A stretch of DNA of 5,052 bases from a virus: IMG/VR virus record IMGVR_UViG_3300045988_005550; one strand, written 5' to 3'. The notes under the pieces are model-generated. The model was not told the origin of the DNA and did not search any database. It saw only the letters and a list, made by a program, of their open reading frames with translations. Of the stretch, positions 1-4,962 are shown piece by piece; the stretch's first letter is position 1, and every line of letters begins with the position of its first letter. A program made the position numbers and the translations under genes.

Positions 1-99
1 CTTTTTTTTATCTATAGCTATGGATTTTTAGATGTCATCAGTTAATCGTTCTACTCAGCATCTGTTCTCTCAGATTCCTTCAACTCAGATTCCTCGATC
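1..99. repeat. Terminal redundancy, copy 1. It is identical to 4954-5052, which implies a circular 4953-nt genome.
   Basis: Base-by-base comparison: c1 t2-t9 a10 ... c99 matches c4954 t4955-t4962 a4963 ... c5052. The offset is 4953 throughout and I found no mismatch. Confidence 0.95.
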
Positions 100-1702
100 G
101 GTCTTTGACCGTTCTCATGGATATAAGACAACTTTTAATTCTGGTTTTCTTGTACCCTTTTACGTTGACGAAGTTCTTCCAGGAGATTCGTTTAAGCTGA
201 CTGCTACTTTGTTTGCCCGTTTGGCTACGCCGATCGTGCCTTTCATGGACAATCTCTATTTAGAGACTTTCTTCTTTTTTGTTCCTAATCGTCTTGTTTG
301 GGATAACTGGCAAAAGTTCAATGGTGAGCAGAAAAATCCTACCGATCCTACGGATTTTTTGATTCCTACGGTTTCCGGCACGAATGTTCAGAATCAGACC
401 TTGTGGGATTATTTCGGTCTTCCGACCAATGTCAATAAAGCTTTGAAAGTAAATGCGCTTCCTTTCCGCGCTTACAATCTCATTTTCAATGAGTGGTTTA
501 GAGACGAGAATCTTCAAGAATCTTTGAAAGTTCCGACTAACGACGGTCCTGACAATTTGTCTGACTACAACTTGGTTCGTCGCGGTAAGCGTCACGACTA
601 TTTCACGTCATGTTTGCCCTGGCCTCAGAAAGGTCCAGGCGTAGAGATTTCGATTGGTGGTCAGGCTAATGTTTCTGGCTCTTTAACTTCTTGGCCCGAT
701 TCTATTTCGTATTCCATGACTGCGACGGAAGGCGCTACCGTTAATCCTTCTGTTGTTTCGTTGAATCTTTTCCCTCAAACGATGACTTCCGGTACTGGAA
801 GTTCGACGTCTGCCTCTTTTGCTCAATCTCAATTTTTAGGTTCAGGGTTTCAAGTACATACGACCCGCGGTAATGTTTCTGTGACTGCTACCCGTGGCGA
901 TCTTGGTGGTTTTGGTTTTTCTGGTAAGGCTGATCTTTCGTCTGCTTCGCCGATCTCTATTAATGATCTTCGTCAAGCCTTCCAGATTCAAAAGCTCTAT
1001 GAACGCGACGCGCGCGGCGGTACGCGCTACACAGAGATCCTTCGCTCGCATTTTGGCGTGGTCTCGCCTGATGCTCGTCTCCAGCGCCCTGAGTACCTCG
1101 GCGGCTCATCTGCTCGTATTTTGATCAATCCCGTCCAACAAACTTCAGCAACGAATGAAACGACCCCTCAGGGTAATTTAGCCGCTTATGGTGTTGCTTC
1201 GGATAGTTTTCATGGCTTCTCGAAGTCCTTTGTCGAGCATGGCTACGTTTTCGGCTTTGTGAATGTCCGTGCTGATTTGACTTATCAGCAAGGTCTGAAT
1301 CGCATGTGGTCGCGTCAAGGTCGTTTTGACTTTTATTGGCCTGTGCTTGCTCATCTTGGCGAACAAGCTGTTCTCAATAAAGAGATCTATGCGCAAGGCA
1401 CTGCTGATGACGATAAGGTTTTTGGTTATCAGGAGCGTTATGCTGAGTATCGCTACTATCCTGGTCAGATTACTGGCAAGTTCCGTTCGACTGATCCTCA
1501 GCCGCTCGACAGTTGGCATTTAGCGCAGAATTTCAGCTCTTTGCCAACGCTTTCGCGGCAATTCATTGAAGATAATCCGCCCGTTGAGCGTGTAATCGCC
1601 GTTCAGAATGAGCCGCAATTCTTGTTTGACTCGTATATTCGTTTGAAGTGTGCTCGTCCGATGCCTGTTTACTCGGTGCCTGGATTGGTTGATCACTTCT
1701 AA
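32..1702 (+). CDS. VP1: Major capsid protein VP1 (Microviridae F-type jelly-roll capsid, gokushovirus-like)
   Basis: 556-aa ORF. It carries blocks typical of gokushovirus VP1: SVFDRSHGYKTTFNSGFLVPFYVDEVLPGDSF, PFMDNLYLETFFFFVPNRLVW, KRHDYFTSCLPWPQKG and INDLRQAFQIQKLYERDARGGTRYTEILRSHFGV. Codon third positions are T-rich. The stop is TAA at 1700-1702. Confidence 0.95.
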   Translation: MSSVNRSTQHLFSQIPSTQIPRSVFDRSHGYKTTFNSGFLVPFYVDEVLPGDSFKLTATLFARLATPIVPFMDNLYLETFFFFVPNRLVWDNWQKFNGEQKNPTDPTDFLIPTVSGTNVQNQTLWDYFGLPTNVNKALKVNALPFRAYNLIFNEWFRDENLQESLKVPTNDGPDNLSDYNLVRRGKRHDYFTSCLPWPQKGPGVEISIGGQANVSGSLTSWPDSISYSMTATEGATVNPSVVSLNLFPQTMTSGTGSSTSASFAQSQFLGSGFQVHTTRGNVSVTATRGDLGGFGFSGKADLSSASPISINDLRQAFQIQKLYERDARGGTRYTEILRSHFGVVSPDARLQRPEYLGGSSARILINPVQQTSATNETTPQGNLAAYGVASDSFHGFSKSFVEHGYVFGFVNVRADLTYQQGLNRMWSRQGRFDFYWPVLAHLGEQAVLNKEIYAQGTADDDKVFGYQERYAEYRYYPGQITGKFRSTDPQPLDSWHLAQNFSSLPTLSRQFIEDNPPVERVIAVQNEPQFLFDSYIRLKCARPMPVYSVPGLVDHF

Positions 1703-1775: not shown

Positions 1776-2399
1776 ATGGGTTTCGGTTGGGCTGAAGCGA
1801 TAGGTAGTGTTGCTAATTTAGGTAGTTCTGCTATGGCTGCTTATTTTGGCTGGAAGCATCAGAAAGAAGTTATGCAAAATCGGCATCAATGGGAAGTTGC
1901 TGATATGCGCAAAGCAGGTCTTAATCCGATACTTTCTGCTACTGGCGGCTCTGGTGCTCCTGGCAACGCACCTACGATCGTTGCTCCTGATCTCGCTGGA
2001 GCGATGAAGTCTGGTGCTGAAGCGTCAACTCAGCATTCTGAGAAGAGTTTGAAAGATGCTCTTGAGAAACAGACTTACGTTCAGAATTCTGCTCTGCAGG
2101 CTGATGCAGGTTTGAAACGCGCTCAGTCTGTTGCTGCTGATTCTTCTTCAAATTTGATGTGGTCTCAAACTAAAGGACAGGAGATTGCTAATAAGATTCA
2201 AGAAGAGAATTTGAAGCAAGCGAAATTTATGACTCAGAATTCTGCTATTGCTGCTGAGAAGCAAAAGATGTTTTTTGATTACATGCGTGATCATTCCTCT
2301 GCTTGGAAGTTTGGTCAGTGGATGGGTCTTGTTAATCCGTTTAACAATACTTCCTCTGCGGCTACTTCTGCTGTAGGTGCCGCTCGTCTTGCAAAATGA
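1776..2399 (+). CDS. VP2: Minor capsid / DNA pilot protein VP2 (phiX174 H analogue)
   Basis: 207-aa ORF directly after VP1. The Gly/Ala-rich N-terminus and the MRKAGLNPILS motif are typical of gokushovirus VP2, and the C-terminal half is helical and Ala/Gln/Lys-rich. AGGA at 1765-1768 lies 7 nt before the ATG. Confidence 0.85.
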   Translation: MGFGWAEAIGSVANLGSSAMAAYFGWKHQKEVMQNRHQWEVADMRKAGLNPILSATGGSGAPGNAPTIVAPDLAGAMKSGAEASTQHSEKSLKDALEKQTYVQNSALQADAGLKRAQSVAADSSSNLMWSQTKGQEIANKIQEENLKQAKFMTQNSAIAAEKQKMFFDYMRDHSSAWKFGQWMGLVNPFNNTSSAATSAVGAARLAK

Positions 2400-2696: not shown

Positions 2697-2927
2697 ATGG
2701 CTACTGCGGCTTTTCGTTTGACTCTTAAAGACTTTGGCGTCTGCTGGCTTATCCCTGGCGAAGAAAGCTATGTTGGTCGTCGCAAGTTGGTGGCCTGGAC
2801 GCTTTATCGCGATCGCCCTTGGGTCGCTCTTTGTTCATTTCAGGTTCGTTTTCGCTCTTCTCGTGAGACGATTCTTCGTGAGCTTCATATTGCGTGTCTT
2901 GAAAAATGCCTTGCTTTCACCCGATAA
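2697..2927 (+). CDS. Hypothetical 76-aa basic, Cys/Trp-containing protein (orphan). Its 3' end overlaps the VP4 start by 22 nt.
   Basis: ORF from the track. By my count about 38 of 76 third positions are T, like the core genes, versus about 19 of 72 for the competing frame at 2734-2952. It occupies an otherwise unexplained 284-nt gap between VP8 and VP4. The SD is weak (TGGA, 8 nt upstream). I recognise no family motif. Confidence 0.45.
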   Translation: MATAAFRLTLKDFGVCWLIPGEESYVGRRKLVAWTLYRDRPWVALCSFQVRFRSSRETILRELHIACLEKCLAFTR

Positions 2928-3823
2928 CGGCTTATCGACTCGCCGGATCTAAGACTGAAGACGGTACTCGCAACGCTGTAACCTTTGATCCTTCGAAGGC
3001 TATTCCGTTTTCTGAGTTTAAGATTCCTTGTGGTCAATGCATTGGCTGTCGTCTTTCTAAGTCTCGTGAATGGGCCGCTCGATGTGTTGTTGAAGCTAAG
3101 TCACATAAGAACAACATGTTTCTTACGTTGACTTATGACGATGCTCACTTGCCTGAAGATGGCTCACTTCATTACGAGCATTTTCAGCTGTTCATGAAGC
3201 GCATGCGTAAATACTTCATGAGCCGTTTTGGTCAACAGCTTCGCTTTTTCATGTGTGGTGAGTATGGCGATAAGCTTGGTCGTCCTCACTATCACGCCAT
3301 AATTTTTGGCGTTACTTTTGTAGATAAACAGCTCTGGTCGATTCGTCGAGGCAATAACTTATATCGTAGCCGTACGCTTGAGAAACTTTGGCCGTATGGT
3401 TTTAGTTCGATTGGTTCAGTCAACTTTGAGACTGCCGCTTATGTCGCTCGTTATGTTACGAAGAAAATTACAGGTCCTTTGAAGCTTGAGCATTACGATG
3501 GTAAGGTTGCTGAATTTTGTCATTGCTCGCTTAAACCTGGCATTGGTCATGACTTTTGTGAAAAGTACATGACTGATATCTATACTAATGACCGTCTCAT
3601 TCTTAGCGAGAAGATAATGATGAATCCTCCGGCTTATTTTGATAAGTTGCTTGAGCGTTCTGATATCGTTCGTTATGAAGAGATTAAGCGTCTTCGCGAA
3701 AAGCGAGGCCGTGACTTTGAAGATACTGGAGAGACTTCTCCTCATCGTCTTTCAGTTCGTGAACGCGTCCAAGAATTGAAAGCCGCTAAACTTAGACGCG
3801 TTATGGAAGAGAATCAATCATGA
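2906..3823 (+). CDS. VP4: Replication initiation protein VP4 (HUH-superfamily rolling-circle endonuclease, phiX174 A analogue)
   Basis: 305-aa ORF with the canonical N-terminus MPCFHPITAY. It has the Cys cluster CGQCIGCRLSKSREWA, motif 1 FLTLTYDD, the HUH motif RPHYHAIIFG, and the tyrosine motif AAYVARYVTKK. There is no recognisable SD before the ATG. Confidence 0.95.
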   Translation: MPCFHPITAYRLAGSKTEDGTRNAVTFDPSKAIPFSEFKIPCGQCIGCRLSKSREWAARCVVEAKSHKNNMFLTLTYDDAHLPEDGSLHYEHFQLFMKRMRKYFMSRFGQQLRFFMCGEYGDKLGRPHYHAIIFGVTFVDKQLWSIRRGNNLYRSRTLEKLWPYGFSSIGSVNFETAAYVARYVTKKITGPLKLEHYDGKVAEFCHCSLKPGIGHDFCEKYMTDIYTNDRLILSEKIMMNPPAYFDKLLERSDIVRYEEIKRLREKRGRDFEDTGETSPHRLSVRERVQELKAAKLRRVMEENQS

Positions 3824-4110
3824 TCCTTAAGGTATTTTCCGTTTTCGATTCGAAGCTTCAGGTCTTTAATACCCCTTTCTTTAGTCGTTCTGCCGCAGAT
3901 GCTTCACGGTCTTTTTCTGATCTTGTCCGCGATAGTCGCACTACAGTCGGTCAGCATCCTGATGATTTCTTTCTTTATGAGATCGGTCAGTACTCTGATG
4001 AGACTGGAGAGCTTGTAGCCTCTGCTCCGACACAGATTGCCGCCGCGACTGCTTTTGTTTCTACGATTGAGGGCCCCAAAGCGGCCGCGCCTGCTAAGGC
4101 CGAAGTCTAA
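3820..4110 (+). CDS. VP5: Non-structural protein VP5 (gokushovirus ORF5 family, proposed analogue of phiX174 protein C)
   Basis: 96-aa ORF. Its ATG overlaps the VP4 TGA in an ATGA arrangement at 3820-3823. The N-terminal pattern KVFSVFDSK...FNTPFFSRSAADASRSF and the later DDFFLYEIGQYSDETGEL match the VP5 pattern as I remember it. The position after VP4 is typical. Confidence 0.8.
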   Translation: MILKVFSVFDSKLQVFNTPFFSRSAADASRSFSDLVRDSRTTVGQHPDDFFLYEIGQYSDETGELVASAPTQIAAATAFVSTIEGPKAAAPAKAEV

Positions 4111-4147: not shown

Positions 4148-4175
4148 AGTCCTTGCGTAGTGCGAGGACTTTTTT
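4148..4175 (+). terminator. Intrinsic-terminator-like hairpin plus T5 between VP5 and VP3
   Basis: AGTCCTTGCG at 4148-4157 pairs with TGCGAGGACT at 4161-4170, giving 10 pairs (2 of them G-T/G-U wobbles) and a 3-nt loop. TTTTT follows at 4171-4175. Confidence 0.55.
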
Positions 4176-4188
4176 ATATGGAGCTTAT

Positions 4189-4638
4189 ATGAAGTTCAAA
4201 ATTAATCACACAAACGCTACTGCCGAAGGCATTGTTTTTACTGAACCGTCGATGACTCAACAGCACTTTAAAGATGAGACCATGATTGACAACATCTTGC
4301 AAAAGTATGCTGAGACCGGTTTTTTGACTGATCCTTTTTCGCCGAAGCGTCCGATTCAGTTTGGTGATTTCTCTGGCGTAACTGATTTTCAGACTGCTCA
4401 GAATGCGGTTGCTCGTGCAACTGAGTACTTTGAAAGTTTGCCGTCGTATATTCGTTCTTCGTTCAATAATTCTCCATCTGACTTTCTCCAGGCGCTCAAT
4501 GACCCTGAGCAGAGAAGTAAGCTTGAGACGCTTGGCTTTATTGCTCCTGAGGAAACTAAACTTCCTGAGCCTACTGGAGAATCTAAGCCTGTTCCGACTG
4601 CAGAGGTTAAACCGTCTTCTTCTGACAACAACGGGTAA
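4189..4638 (+). CDS. VP3: Internal scaffolding protein VP3
   Basis: 149 aa counted from ATG 4189. GGAG at 4180-4183 lies 5 nt upstream. The motif TEPSMTQQHFKDETMIDNILQKYAETGFL matches the conserved T-x-Q-x-x-KDE-x-DIN-x-I-x-KY-x-x-TG block of gokushovirus or chlamydiaphage scaffold proteins, recalled from memory. The C-terminus is acidic and Pro-rich. The TTG start at 4153 in the track lies inside the upstream hairpin and is disfavoured. Confidence 0.85.
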   Translation: MKFKINHTNATAEGIVFTEPSMTQQHFKDETMIDNILQKYAETGFLTDPFSPKRPIQFGDFSGVTDFQTAQNAVARATEYFESLPSYIRSSFNNSPSDFLQALNDPEQRSKLETLGFIAPEETKLPEPTGESKPVPTAEVKPSSSDNNG

Positions 4639-4655
4639 TTACTAATAACCAATAT

Positions 4656-4676
4656 AAGGGATGGTTTCCATCCCTT
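4656..4676 (+). other. Perfect 9-bp hairpin located 18 nt after the VP3 stop
   Basis: AAGGGATGG at 4656-4664 and CCATCCCTT at 4668-4676, with a TTT loop. The 3' arm core ATCCCTT is repeated at 4681-4687, which offers an alternative pairing partner. Confidence 0.6.
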
Positions 4677-4688
4677 CAAAATCCCTTT

Positions 4689-4716
4689 GACCGTCCACTT
4701 GTGGCGGTCTTTTTTT
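4689..4716 (+). terminator. Intrinsic-terminator-like hairpin plus T7 downstream of VP3
   Basis: GACCG(T)CCA at 4689-4697 pairs with TGGCGGTC at 4702-4709, with one bulged T. Seven T residues follow at 4710-4716. Confidence 0.6.
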
Positions 4717-4729
4717 ATAGGTATCTCAA

Positions 4730-4745
4730 CGATTTGCGCACGGGT
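4730..4745 (+). repeat. Direct repeat copy A (CGATTTGCGCACGGGT), 3 nt upstream of the 16-bp hairpin
   Basis: It matches 4796-4811 at 15 of 16 positions; the single difference is T4734 versus C4800. It contains the palindrome TGCGCA. Confidence 0.8.
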
Positions 4746-4748
4746 ACA

Positions 4749-4789
4749 CACCGGAACCAGTTACTTACTTGATGTAACTGGTTCCGGTG
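4749..4789 (+). promoter_or_regulatory. Perfect 16-bp stem with a 9-nt loop (TTACTTGAT). Candidate plus-strand origin and Rep nick-site hairpin.
   Basis: CACCGGAACCAGTTAC at 4749-4764 is the exact reverse complement of GTAACTGGTTCCGGTG at 4774-4789. The loop at 4765-4773 contains ACTTGAT, identical to the core of the phiX174 gene A protein cleavage site (CAACTTG/ATATT, from memory). The structure is certain. The functional call is inference. Confidence 0.45.
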
Positions 4790-4795
4790 ACACCC

Positions 4796-4811
4796 CGATC
4801 TGCGCACGGGT
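4796..4811 (+). repeat. Direct repeat copy B (CGATCTGCGCACGGGT), 6-7 nt downstream of the 16-bp hairpin
   Basis: See copy A. The two copies are spaced 66 nt apart and bracket the hairpin. Confidence 0.8.
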
Positions 4812-4833: not shown

Positions 4834-4869
4834 TTGCTTTCTGGTTGCTTTGTGGTATATGCTTTGTCC
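4834..4869 (+). repeat. Tandem 11-nt repeats TTGCTTTNTGG (two adjacent copies) plus a third degenerate copy
   Basis: TTGCTTTCTGG at 4834-4844 and TTGCTTTGTGG at 4845-4855 are adjacent. ATGCTTTGTCC at 4859-4869 shares the TGCTTTGT core. Confidence 0.6.
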
Positions 4870-4912
4870 TACGGTGATAAAGCTTTTTGGAGTCTTAGGT
4901 TTTAGAGCCGTA

Positions 4913-4962
4913 GGGCGATCGGTTCGATGAGAGGGCTTTCAGAACTGGTCGCCCTTTTTTTT
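4913..4962 (+). terminator. Long hairpin plus T8, intrinsic-terminator-like, ending 22 nt upstream of the VP1 start codon in circular coordinates
   Basis: 4913-4925 pairs with 4942-4954, giving 13 pairs of which 2 are wobbles. An inner extension pairs 4928-4932 with 4937-4941. T8 follows at 4955-4962. The element spans the linearisation point, and its T-run also appears at window positions 2-9. Confidence 0.6.

Follow-up and report, generated by a model that had tools for sequence, protein, structure and literature searches.

We analyzed a 5,052-nt stretch of viral DNA (IMG/VR record IMGVR_UViG_3300045988_005550; here, the window) whose source phage, judged by its sequence, is a gokushovirus. 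An intergenic hairpin in the interval between the genes for VP3 (scaffold) and VP1 (capsid) displays the heptamer ACTTGAT in its loop, and a TGAC(A)C box adjoins the foot of its 3' arm. Based on the conservation of this module of hairpin, loop motif, and box, and on its likeness to the phiX174 origin, we conclude that it is probably the viral-strand (plus) origin of rolling-circle replication, nicked within the loop by the replication protein (Rep) VP4 (Table 1). A repeat finder recovered the perfect 16-bp stem (arms 16/16 complementary) and the 9-nt loop with ACTTGAT (window positions 4767 to 4773) described in an initial annotation of the window. That annotation also called the hairpin the strongest structural element of the genome, which it is in the sense of being the longest perfect inverted repeat of the window. 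As DNA it folds at -29 kcal/mol, versus -10.7 +/- 2.2 kcal/mol for 200 shuffled sequences, none of which equaled it (z = -8.3). The scarcity of the core motif was likewise borne out, with CTTGAT occurring once on both strands of the window versus ~3.9 occurrences expected. Because there is no other CTTGAT in the window, the VP4 gene included, a nick in the loop is supported. Directly after the stem, the TGAC(A)C box constitutes a second conserved determinant that the initial annotation had missed, and its TGAC begins 17 nt past the nick-site G.

Sequences fetched with a motif cannot prove that the motif is conserved. We searched genomes sampled solely by VP4 similarity with a covariance model of the module (R1), and our claims about conservation rest on such VP4-sampled sets; in a second alignment (A1), built from sequences fetched with a 15-mer, conservation of the loop is built in. 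The model found the module in 21 of 22 distant IMG/VR contigs (VP4 43 to 50% identical), the lone exception being a truncated contig, and in 66 of 78 bacterial genome assembly loci, several of the remainder being short fragments. Among 14 GenBank genomes taken at even steps down the tblastn VP4 ranking, from 45% to 28% identity, 9 carried the module at E < 0.05, and 3 more modules were recognizable by eye. The conserved hairpin with an ACTTGAT-like loop on which the initial annotation had staked its proposal is thus present in VP4 relatives of all three sets (9 to 12 of the 14 in GenBank).

Searches by sequence identity gave a similar picture. In sensitive blastn searches the noncoding region aligned end to end only with six close relatives, and the 35 to 45 nt of the hairpin alone also matched 28 otherwise unalignable microviruses at 84 to 94% identity. 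An exact scan of IMG/VR with TACTTGATGTAACTG returned at least 120 stretches, nearly all on 4- to 5-kb contigs, and a consensus query placed the module in 438 phage records, in which each organism name listed was a microvirus name. In the consensus, the 5' arm ends in CAGT, the loop of 9 to 18 nt ends in YTACTTGAT(G/A)TA, the 3' arm starts with ACTG, and (G/A/C)(G/C/T)TGACAC(C) follows directly after the stem. The box was missing from 24 of the 204 exact 15-mer matches listed, most of them on longer contigs not of microvirus size; the box-less matches in our records L142, L156, L161, and L187 are microvirus variants. Some contigs (L104, L139, L146, L148, L176, and L190) hold two module copies each. 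In some of these the copies are spaced one genome length apart, suggesting terminal redundancy or strain mixtures; others, with copies ~750 nt (L190) or 8,974 nt (L104) apart, may have arisen by chimeric assembly or by recombination near origins.

Within 85 VP4-sampled modules, the loop heptamer was ACTTGAT in 43 and TCTTGAT in 15, so that 58 of 85 read (A/T)CTTGAT. Of the 79 modules in which the spacing was measured, 57 had the T of TGAC 17 nt past the nick-site G and 17 had it at 18 nt (74/79). The box columns of alignment A1 show no variation at T49, G50, and A51 and conservation of at least 90% at C52, A53, and C54. We also located the module in classical isolates, namely in Chp2 (CTAGCGTATAACAG-TCTACTTGAT-CTGTTATACGCTAG-GTGATAGC), in phiMH2K (L208, 3286 to 3346; loop CTACTTGTTGTAA), and in SpV4 (L207, ~504 to 547; GGGGCATATAT-TACTTGTTA-TAATATGCCCC-ATTGAC). 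R1 with default filters misses the SpV4 hairpin, which supersedes a far poorer first candidate (AAACTTGATAAG... near position 1642). The loops of phiMH2K and SpV4, two of the three classical gokushovirus isolates, read ACTTG-TT instead of ACTTG-AT, and in phiMH2K CTCACAG replaces the TGACAC box. A textbook copy of the module lies in the VP3-VP1 interval of a gokushovirus prophage in the chromosome of Escherichia coli strain C41 (NZ_CP127252, 3021974 to 3022033; L304, 4108 to 4167), whose Rep is WP_286004707.

Host labels of the module-bearing genomes include Chlamydia, Bdellovibrio, Spiroplasma, Enterobacteriaceae, Negativicutes, Clostridia, Desulfovibrionaceae, and Alphaproteobacteria. Hosts this diverse argue for a partner of the module that is encoded by the phage rather than by the host, and VP4 is the one conserved phage enzyme that acts on DNA. 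The closest VP4 relatives in bacterial assemblies (L227, L231, and L232; 43 to 48% identity) include loci from Phascolarctobacterium and Veillonella, and an integrated prophage of the isolate P. faecium DSM 14760 is among them, which hints at Negativicutes as hosts of related phages.

The stem changes in sequence and keeps its pairing. In 81 diverse copies of the module aligned with MAFFT (A1), the central pairs were paired in >95% of sequences, and double changes were frequent (one pair, for instance, was C-G in 38 and A-U in 31 copies and another A-U in 55 and C-G in 23). In the 85 VP4-sampled copies, 91.7% of cells were paired, both sides changed in 10 of 10 pairs, and 176 cells held double changes versus 44 +/- 7 in shuffled alignments (0 of 500 reached 176). 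Sliding the partner by 1 to 3 columns cut pairing to 24 to 50%. The VP4-sampled alignment was fitted to the model, which favors structure, and the MAFFT alignment agrees with it. Two compensatory changes fall within the 5' arm even in the close clade of the window. The comparison of related noncoding regions that the initial annotation had recommended thus came out as it anticipated for the stem, which co-varies, and for the loop, which stays fixed along with a 3' box. Together, these alignments indicate that the stem is selected as structure and the loop and box as sequence. A second hairpin that uses the TGACACC box as its 5' arm was present in ~40% of lineages and absent from the window, and we rejected it as a core part of the module.

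The loop and box resemble the origin of phiX174, whose Rep (gpA) is homologous to VP4. VP4 (305 amino acids) matched Pfam PF23343 at 2.4e-25 and, weakly, Phage_GPA (PF05840), with Pfam hits only to the REP_ORF2-G2P and GPA nuclease region, and BLASTP aligned it with gpA at 8e-8 over the HUH region. It has the HUH motif PHYHAIIF and the sequence YVARYVTKK (Y179 and Y183), corresponding to YVAKYVNKK in gpA (Y343 and Y347, its established catalytic pair), so that both proteins combine HUH with YVA(K/R)YV.KK. The phiX174 origin cited in the initial annotation proved correct: positions 4299 to 4328 of NC_001422 are CAACTTGATATTAATAACACTATAGACCAC, with the rep_origin annotated at 4306. The heptamer is identical in the two phages (window 4767 to 4773 versus phiX174 4301 to 4307, spanning the annotated origin). 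Without gaps, the phiX174 30-mer and the window 30-mer TTACTTGATGTAACTGGTTCCGGTGACACC have ACTTGAT, T11, T15, and G25-A26-C27 in common; phiX174 agrees with the gokushovirus alignment at 11 of its 13 invariant columns, and the phiX174 GAC at positions 25 to 27 stands in the same register as the gokushovirus TGAC box. A weight matrix built from 16 VP4-sampled modules ranked the true phiX174 origin 2nd of 10,772 positions, and with the seven anchor columns removed the origin was still in the top 1.3%. This support is modest but real.

The arrangement nevertheless differs from that of phiX174, as the initial annotation had pointed out. In phiX174 and G4 (Bullavirinae) the origin lies inside the Rep gene, whereas the gokushovirus module is intergenic, between VP3 and VP1. 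Where phiX174 has an AT-rich spacer and no hairpin, the gokushovirus spacer is the G+C-rich 3' arm of a hairpin (16 bp in the window) that pairs upstream and places the nick site in the loop; phiX174 is not detected by R1. The phiX174 origin was mapped experimentally, and the gokushovirus module is known by comparison. Dulem virus 247 (L225, PP511616, ~3950 to 3985; VP4 31% identical) has the sequence CTACTTGATATTATATGTAGGAGTGACAC (at ~3950 to 3985, CTCTACTTGATATTATATGTAGGAGTGACAC), a module of the form CTACTTGATATTA...AGTGACAC. It combines the phiX174 ACTTGATATTA and an AT-rich spacer with the gokushovirus box at the same spacing and forms hardly any hairpin. Based on its sequence, it appears to be an intermediate between phiX174-type and gokushovirus-type origins. 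The Dulem virus 247 genome is 6.25 kb long and has a large capsid gene.

The module also has a consistent relationship to strand composition. In 19 genomes the complete, strand-specific module lies opposite to all genes, comprising 6 of 156 IMG/VR contigs (L123, L147, L157, L164, L181, and L204), 3 of the 14 GenBank genomes (KT264797, PP511662, and PQ007272, with modules at L218 3043 to 3103, L217 2767 to 2826, and L220 2698 to 2757, all on the minus strand), and 10 of the 66 bacterial assembly loci (L264, L267, L270, L277, L280, L281, L284, L285, L295, and L299), which are contigs of metagenome-assembled genomes and integrated prophages. Many of these assembly loci are labeled Clostridia or Oscillospiraceae, and overall the module is on the noncoding strand in ~10 to 15% of genomes. 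The VP1 proteins of inverted genomes resemble those of same-orientation genomes as closely as they resemble one another, indicating that inversion does not reflect one deep split. From the four-fold degenerate positions of VP1 and VP4 we calculated the (T-A)/(T+A) skew of the coding strand. Skew was positive in 143 of the 169 genomes that have the module in gene orientation (median, +0.52) and negative in 17 of the 19 in which it is inverted (median, -0.50). Values were +0.73 for the window and +0.72 for phiX174, and a matched Clostridia-type subset gave +0.40 in the same orientation versus -0.40 inverted. The association was strong (Mann-Whitney p = 4e-10; Fisher p = 9e-11), although these p-values overstate the evidence, as the genomes are not independent. 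The exceptions among inverted genomes were L147 (+0.65) and L280 (near zero). GC skew at synonymous sites showed no clear flip with module orientation. The strand that bears the module is therefore the T-rich strand whichever way the genes run, as it is in phiX174. In phiX174 the T-rich strand is the packaged strand, and from these patterns we infer that the module marks the packaged strand.

This link between orientation and skew excludes RNA-level roles and orientation-free double-stranded DNA roles. A terminator, attenuator, or mRNA-stabilizing hairpin might be expected from the position of the module between VP3 and VP1, on the coding strand, and near terminator-like hairpins (4689 to 4716 and 4861 to 4888). 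We consider such an RNA function very improbable. No T-run follows the hairpin, which was not among the calls of a terminator scan, and conservation of its loop and box extends beyond structure to the sequence itself; moreover, transcripts of the 19 inverted genomes would carry its complement. An Rfam scan of the whole window at E <= 1 found nothing relevant (the best match was mir-582 at E = 0.52).

The skew pattern fits a complementary-strand (minus) origin equally well. Such an element would fold on the incoming single-stranded DNA and recruit host primase, RNA polymerase, or a primosome, as do the n' site of phiX174, the G4 origin, and plasmid single-strand origins. A stable hairpin on the packaged strand would suit this function, and conserved hairpins of other microvirus clades have tentatively been read in this way (Olo Ndela et al. 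2022, PMC9865509). However, loop and box keep their sequence in genomes assigned to hosts of at least five phyla, whereas host-dependent priming signals usually differ from one host to another; the loop holds the exact cleavage heptamer of a homologous Rep, with the phiX174 box spacing; and other intergenic hairpins could serve priming. We therefore regard a minus origin as unlikely. Slightly less likely still is a packaging or other viral-strand signal recognized by VP5, VP8, or the procapsid, with the true origin elsewhere. Strand-specific conservation and the skew association are compatible with such a signal, and the 30-bp phiX174 origin is itself also a packaging determinant (1980s plasmid-origin work). 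On the other hand, the window has no other conserved noncoding element and no second CTTGAT that could be the origin, and the match to the phiX174 nick heptamer would be a coincidence. In phiX174 both roles coincide, and origin and packaging roles may coexist in the gokushovirus module.

Integrated prophages bear on yet another possibility, that the module is a recombination or integration site (a XerCD/dif-like phage attachment site, attP) or the footprint of a mobile element with the flanking repeats as its target-site duplication. Enterobacterial gokushoviruses do integrate at dif (PMC7062461), the repeats hold the palindrome TGCGCA, and a repeat-bracketed hairpin resembles a target-site duplication. 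Yet the module is internal in every integrated prophage with a gene map that we examined. It is intact and internal in the Desulfovibrionaceae prophage (L209/L228), where it again lies between VP3 and VP1, as well as in L211 and E. coli C41. The two tandem prophages of Intestinirhabdus alba carry one module each, as do the two tandem units of L273, in which the 66-nt junction repeat is located elsewhere than the module. The module is almost universal in relatives; the repeats are clade specific, and their 3' copy is not maintained. This explanation, raised in the initial annotation as a recombination site, is the least probable that we considered, and for the hairpin itself the prophage maps refute it. 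The Intestinirhabdus alba locus (strain BIT-B35, NZ_WMJZ01000007; L252, 2660 to 11000) consists of two divergent tandem units with 68 to 74% identity. L273 (2912 to 13321) comprises two 5,171-nt units that are 97.8% identical, with the 66-nt repeat, presumably the attachment site, occurring three times at the junctions (2912, 8083, and 13256). L210 was considered as a free circular form of the L209 prophage and rejected; it is a piece of that very prophage region, identical in sequence, and gives no attP position.

The direct repeats that bracket the hairpin are real but do not generalize. As first described, they are near identical (15/16, one base differing, at 4730 to 4745 and 4796 to 4811), and they lie 3 nt and 6 nt away from the stem. 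The two flanks have an exact 11-mer in common, and a common substring of at least 11 nt occurred in 1 of 395 control flank pairs, so that the repeats are not due to chance. They occur in the clade of the window (VP4 identity of at least 94%) and in no other lineage, contrary to the expectation that they would be conserved among relatives. Even in 42 distinct close-clade sequences, only the 5' copy is nearly invariant; the 3' copy keeps only CGAT and C(A/G)CGGGT, and its center (4800 to 4806) is the most variable stretch of the region within the clade (GCACGTG, GCTTGCA, GTGCGTG, GAGCGTG, CTGCGCG, and others). Given this hypervariability, the 15/16 match of the window is unusual even among its closest relatives. 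We counted at least 10 variants of the heptamer (L006-L063 equivalents) between invariant CCCCGAT and CGGGTA. Downstream of it are two alternative "alleles" (…CCCAACGCACTGCTCG… and …CCGTACGAAACTCTCG…), which suggests recombination beside the origin.

Over 80 lineages, direct repeats in the flanks were no longer than those in mismatched controls (mean longest common substring, 6.25 versus 5.83), and we rejected iterons as a general feature of the origin. The proposal that the repeats are Rep-binding iterons is thus not supported, given their restriction to one clade, the hypervariable 3' center, and this lack of excess elsewhere. The CGGG of the 5' copy can pair with CCCG at 4793 to 4796, and TGCGCA can pair with itself, giving a longer predicted hairpin. 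In the clade alignment this CGGG/CCCG helix fits but never co-varies. The repeats may extend the hairpin in such a model; they are not a general component of the origin, and a clade-specific accessory role is possible.

Considered together, the results favor the viral-strand origin that the initial annotation proposed. Its core, a rolling-circle origin nicked in the loop, gains from the conservation of the module, the co-variation of the stem, and the sole CTTGAT of the window; its flanking iterons are not supported. From the comparisons above we infer that VP4 binds and cuts the module, that the box is where Rep binds, that the hairpin is extruded, and that nicking is coupled to packaging. 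Supercoiling of the double-stranded replicative form would extrude the inverted repeat as a hairpin, and VP4 would dock where the 3' side of the stem meets single strand, at the TGAC(A)C box. One of its two catalytic tyrosines would then cut the loop at ACTTG/AT, with the nick predicted between G4771 and A4772, and become linked to the 5' end, and a host polymerase would extend the 3'-OH. After one round, the second tyrosine would cut the regenerated hairpin, and the displaced strand would be circularized and, by analogy with phiX174 stage III, packaged while it is made.

Several observations weigh against this origin. The whole case is comparative, and beyond ACTTGAT the similarity to the phiX174 origin is modest (p ~0.01 to 0.04). 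The heptamer is not invariant, with TCTTGAT, ACTAGAT, ACTTGAC, and G/TT (phiMH2K and SpV4) all occurring, and in 2 of the 14 distant GenBank genomes (VP4 ~28% identical) the module was not found. PhiMH2K (-0.25) and 25 other same-orientation genomes have negative skew, and the skew result would suit a complementary-strand origin, a packaging signal, or any other element acting on the packaged strand equally well.

The window represents a circular genome of 4,953 nt, its terminal 99 bases being identical at both ends, and its + strand carries every gene (Table 1). The nearest GenBank records are human-associated Gokushovirinae at 86 to 89% identity. The hairpin lies within a noncoding stretch of ~345 nt, and this entire intergenic region folds at z = -6.8. 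Four further hairpins are present in the same region (4656 to 4676, 4689 to 4716, 4861 to 4888, and 4917 to 4961). Two of them are followed by T-runs and bracket the module (4689 to 4709 with T7 and 4917 to 4953 with T8), and the hairpin at 4861 to 4883 is terminator-like. These extra hairpins are candidate terminators or a candidate minus-strand priming site.

Table 1. Features of the window, by position
Feature	Position	Strand	Evidence or remark
VP1 capsid	32-1702	+	
Probable VP2	1776-2399	+	
VP4 Rep (HUH rolling-circle), predicted to act on the module	2906-3823	+	Pfam, motifs, BLASTP
VP5	3820-4110	+	
VP3 scaffold	4153-4638	+	
5' direct repeat copy, CGATTTGCGCACGGGT	4730-4745	+	Clade-specific
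Complete origin-like module, conserved (hairpin with loop motif, plus 3' box)	4740-4799	+	Covariance model R1, 62.8 bits, E ~1e-12
5' arm, CACCGGAACCAGTTAC	4749-4764	+	16/16 complementary to 4774-4789
Loop, TTACTTGAT (9 nt)	4765-4773	+	Holds the sole CTTGAT of the window
3' arm, GTAACTGGTTCCGGTG	4774-4789	+	GTAACTG kept as sequence; remainder co-varies with 5' arm
3' box, GGTGACAC (TGAC 4788-4791), at stem base	4786-4793	+	Candidate Rep-binding ("key") sequence
3' direct repeat copy, CGATCTGCGCACGGGT	4796-4811	+	Relatives keep only CGAT and C(A/G)CGGGT

Other replicons offer partial parallels. The pC194 family of plasmids is nicked in CTTG/ATA, a core common to phiX174 and this module, and pT181 and pMV158 present the nick in an extruded hairpin loop beside the Rep-binding locus. 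The pC194/pUB110 and pT181/pMV158 plasmids have separate, host-specific single-strand origins, and the likeness drawn here is limited to the CTTGAT core. Circular Rep-encoding single-stranded DNA (CRESS-DNA) viruses, such as geminiviruses, circoviruses, and nanoviruses, likewise combine an HUH Rep with a nick motif in the loop of an intergenic hairpin with a co-varying stem, a feature that the gokushovirus module shares (91.7% paired, 10/10 pairs). Their nick sequence is unrelated (TAATATT/AC-type), and their Reps have a single catalytic tyrosine. VP4 has a pair of tyrosines. A helicase domain is present in CRESS Reps (PMC6668415) but not in VP4, in which we found no superfamily 3 (SF3) helicase fusion. 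Lineage-specific flanking iterons, which CRESS-DNA viruses have, are unsupported in gokushoviruses, whose module instead has a fixed 3' box.

Within the microviruses, Olo Ndela et al. (2022) described intergenic hairpins near Rep in "roodoodoo-" and "reekeekeeviruses," with compensatory stems and conserved loops (PMC9865509). Those authors tentatively proposed minus-strand priming and, in contrast to the module described here, reported no phiX174-like nick motif (PMC9865509). Neither a gokushovirus origin nor this motif was described in the literature that we could search, which included the eLife revival paper, the 81-genome survey, and the 2022 global microvirus survey, although an earlier remark may exist in the genome papers of Chp1, Chp2, SpV4, and phiMH2K. 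Read as an origin, the module is a phiX174-type origin recast in hairpin-loop form, of which the window copy is an ordinary member.

No other single-stranded DNA phages are as abundant in gut and environmental viromes as the gokushovirus-type microviruses, and the ~45-nt module of hairpin, loop motif, and box would provide an explicit, testable origin for thousands of genomes. It would link the in-gene, hairpin-less origin of phiX174 to the hairpin-loop origins of plasmids and CRESS-DNA viruses through at least one intermediate form. For annotation of metagenomic microvirus genomes it would offer a natural zero point and strand, and it could be the cis element for gokushovirus vectors; it is present in an E. 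coli prophage belonging to the family that Kirchberger and Ochman revived. Finally, because the module is repeatedly inverted relative to the genes, with reversed skew in 17 of 19 such genomes as its footprint, we tentatively raise the possibility, plausible but short of a favored conclusion, that the module is the sole determinant of the strand rolled off and packaged and that a sizeable minority of gokushovirus-type phages are negative-sense Microviridae that package the antisense strand. The 2022 global microvirus survey goes no further than stating that microvirus genes all point in the same direction, and the packaged strand is not discussed in the major surveys that we reached. If this proposal is true, some microviruses would be negative-sense.

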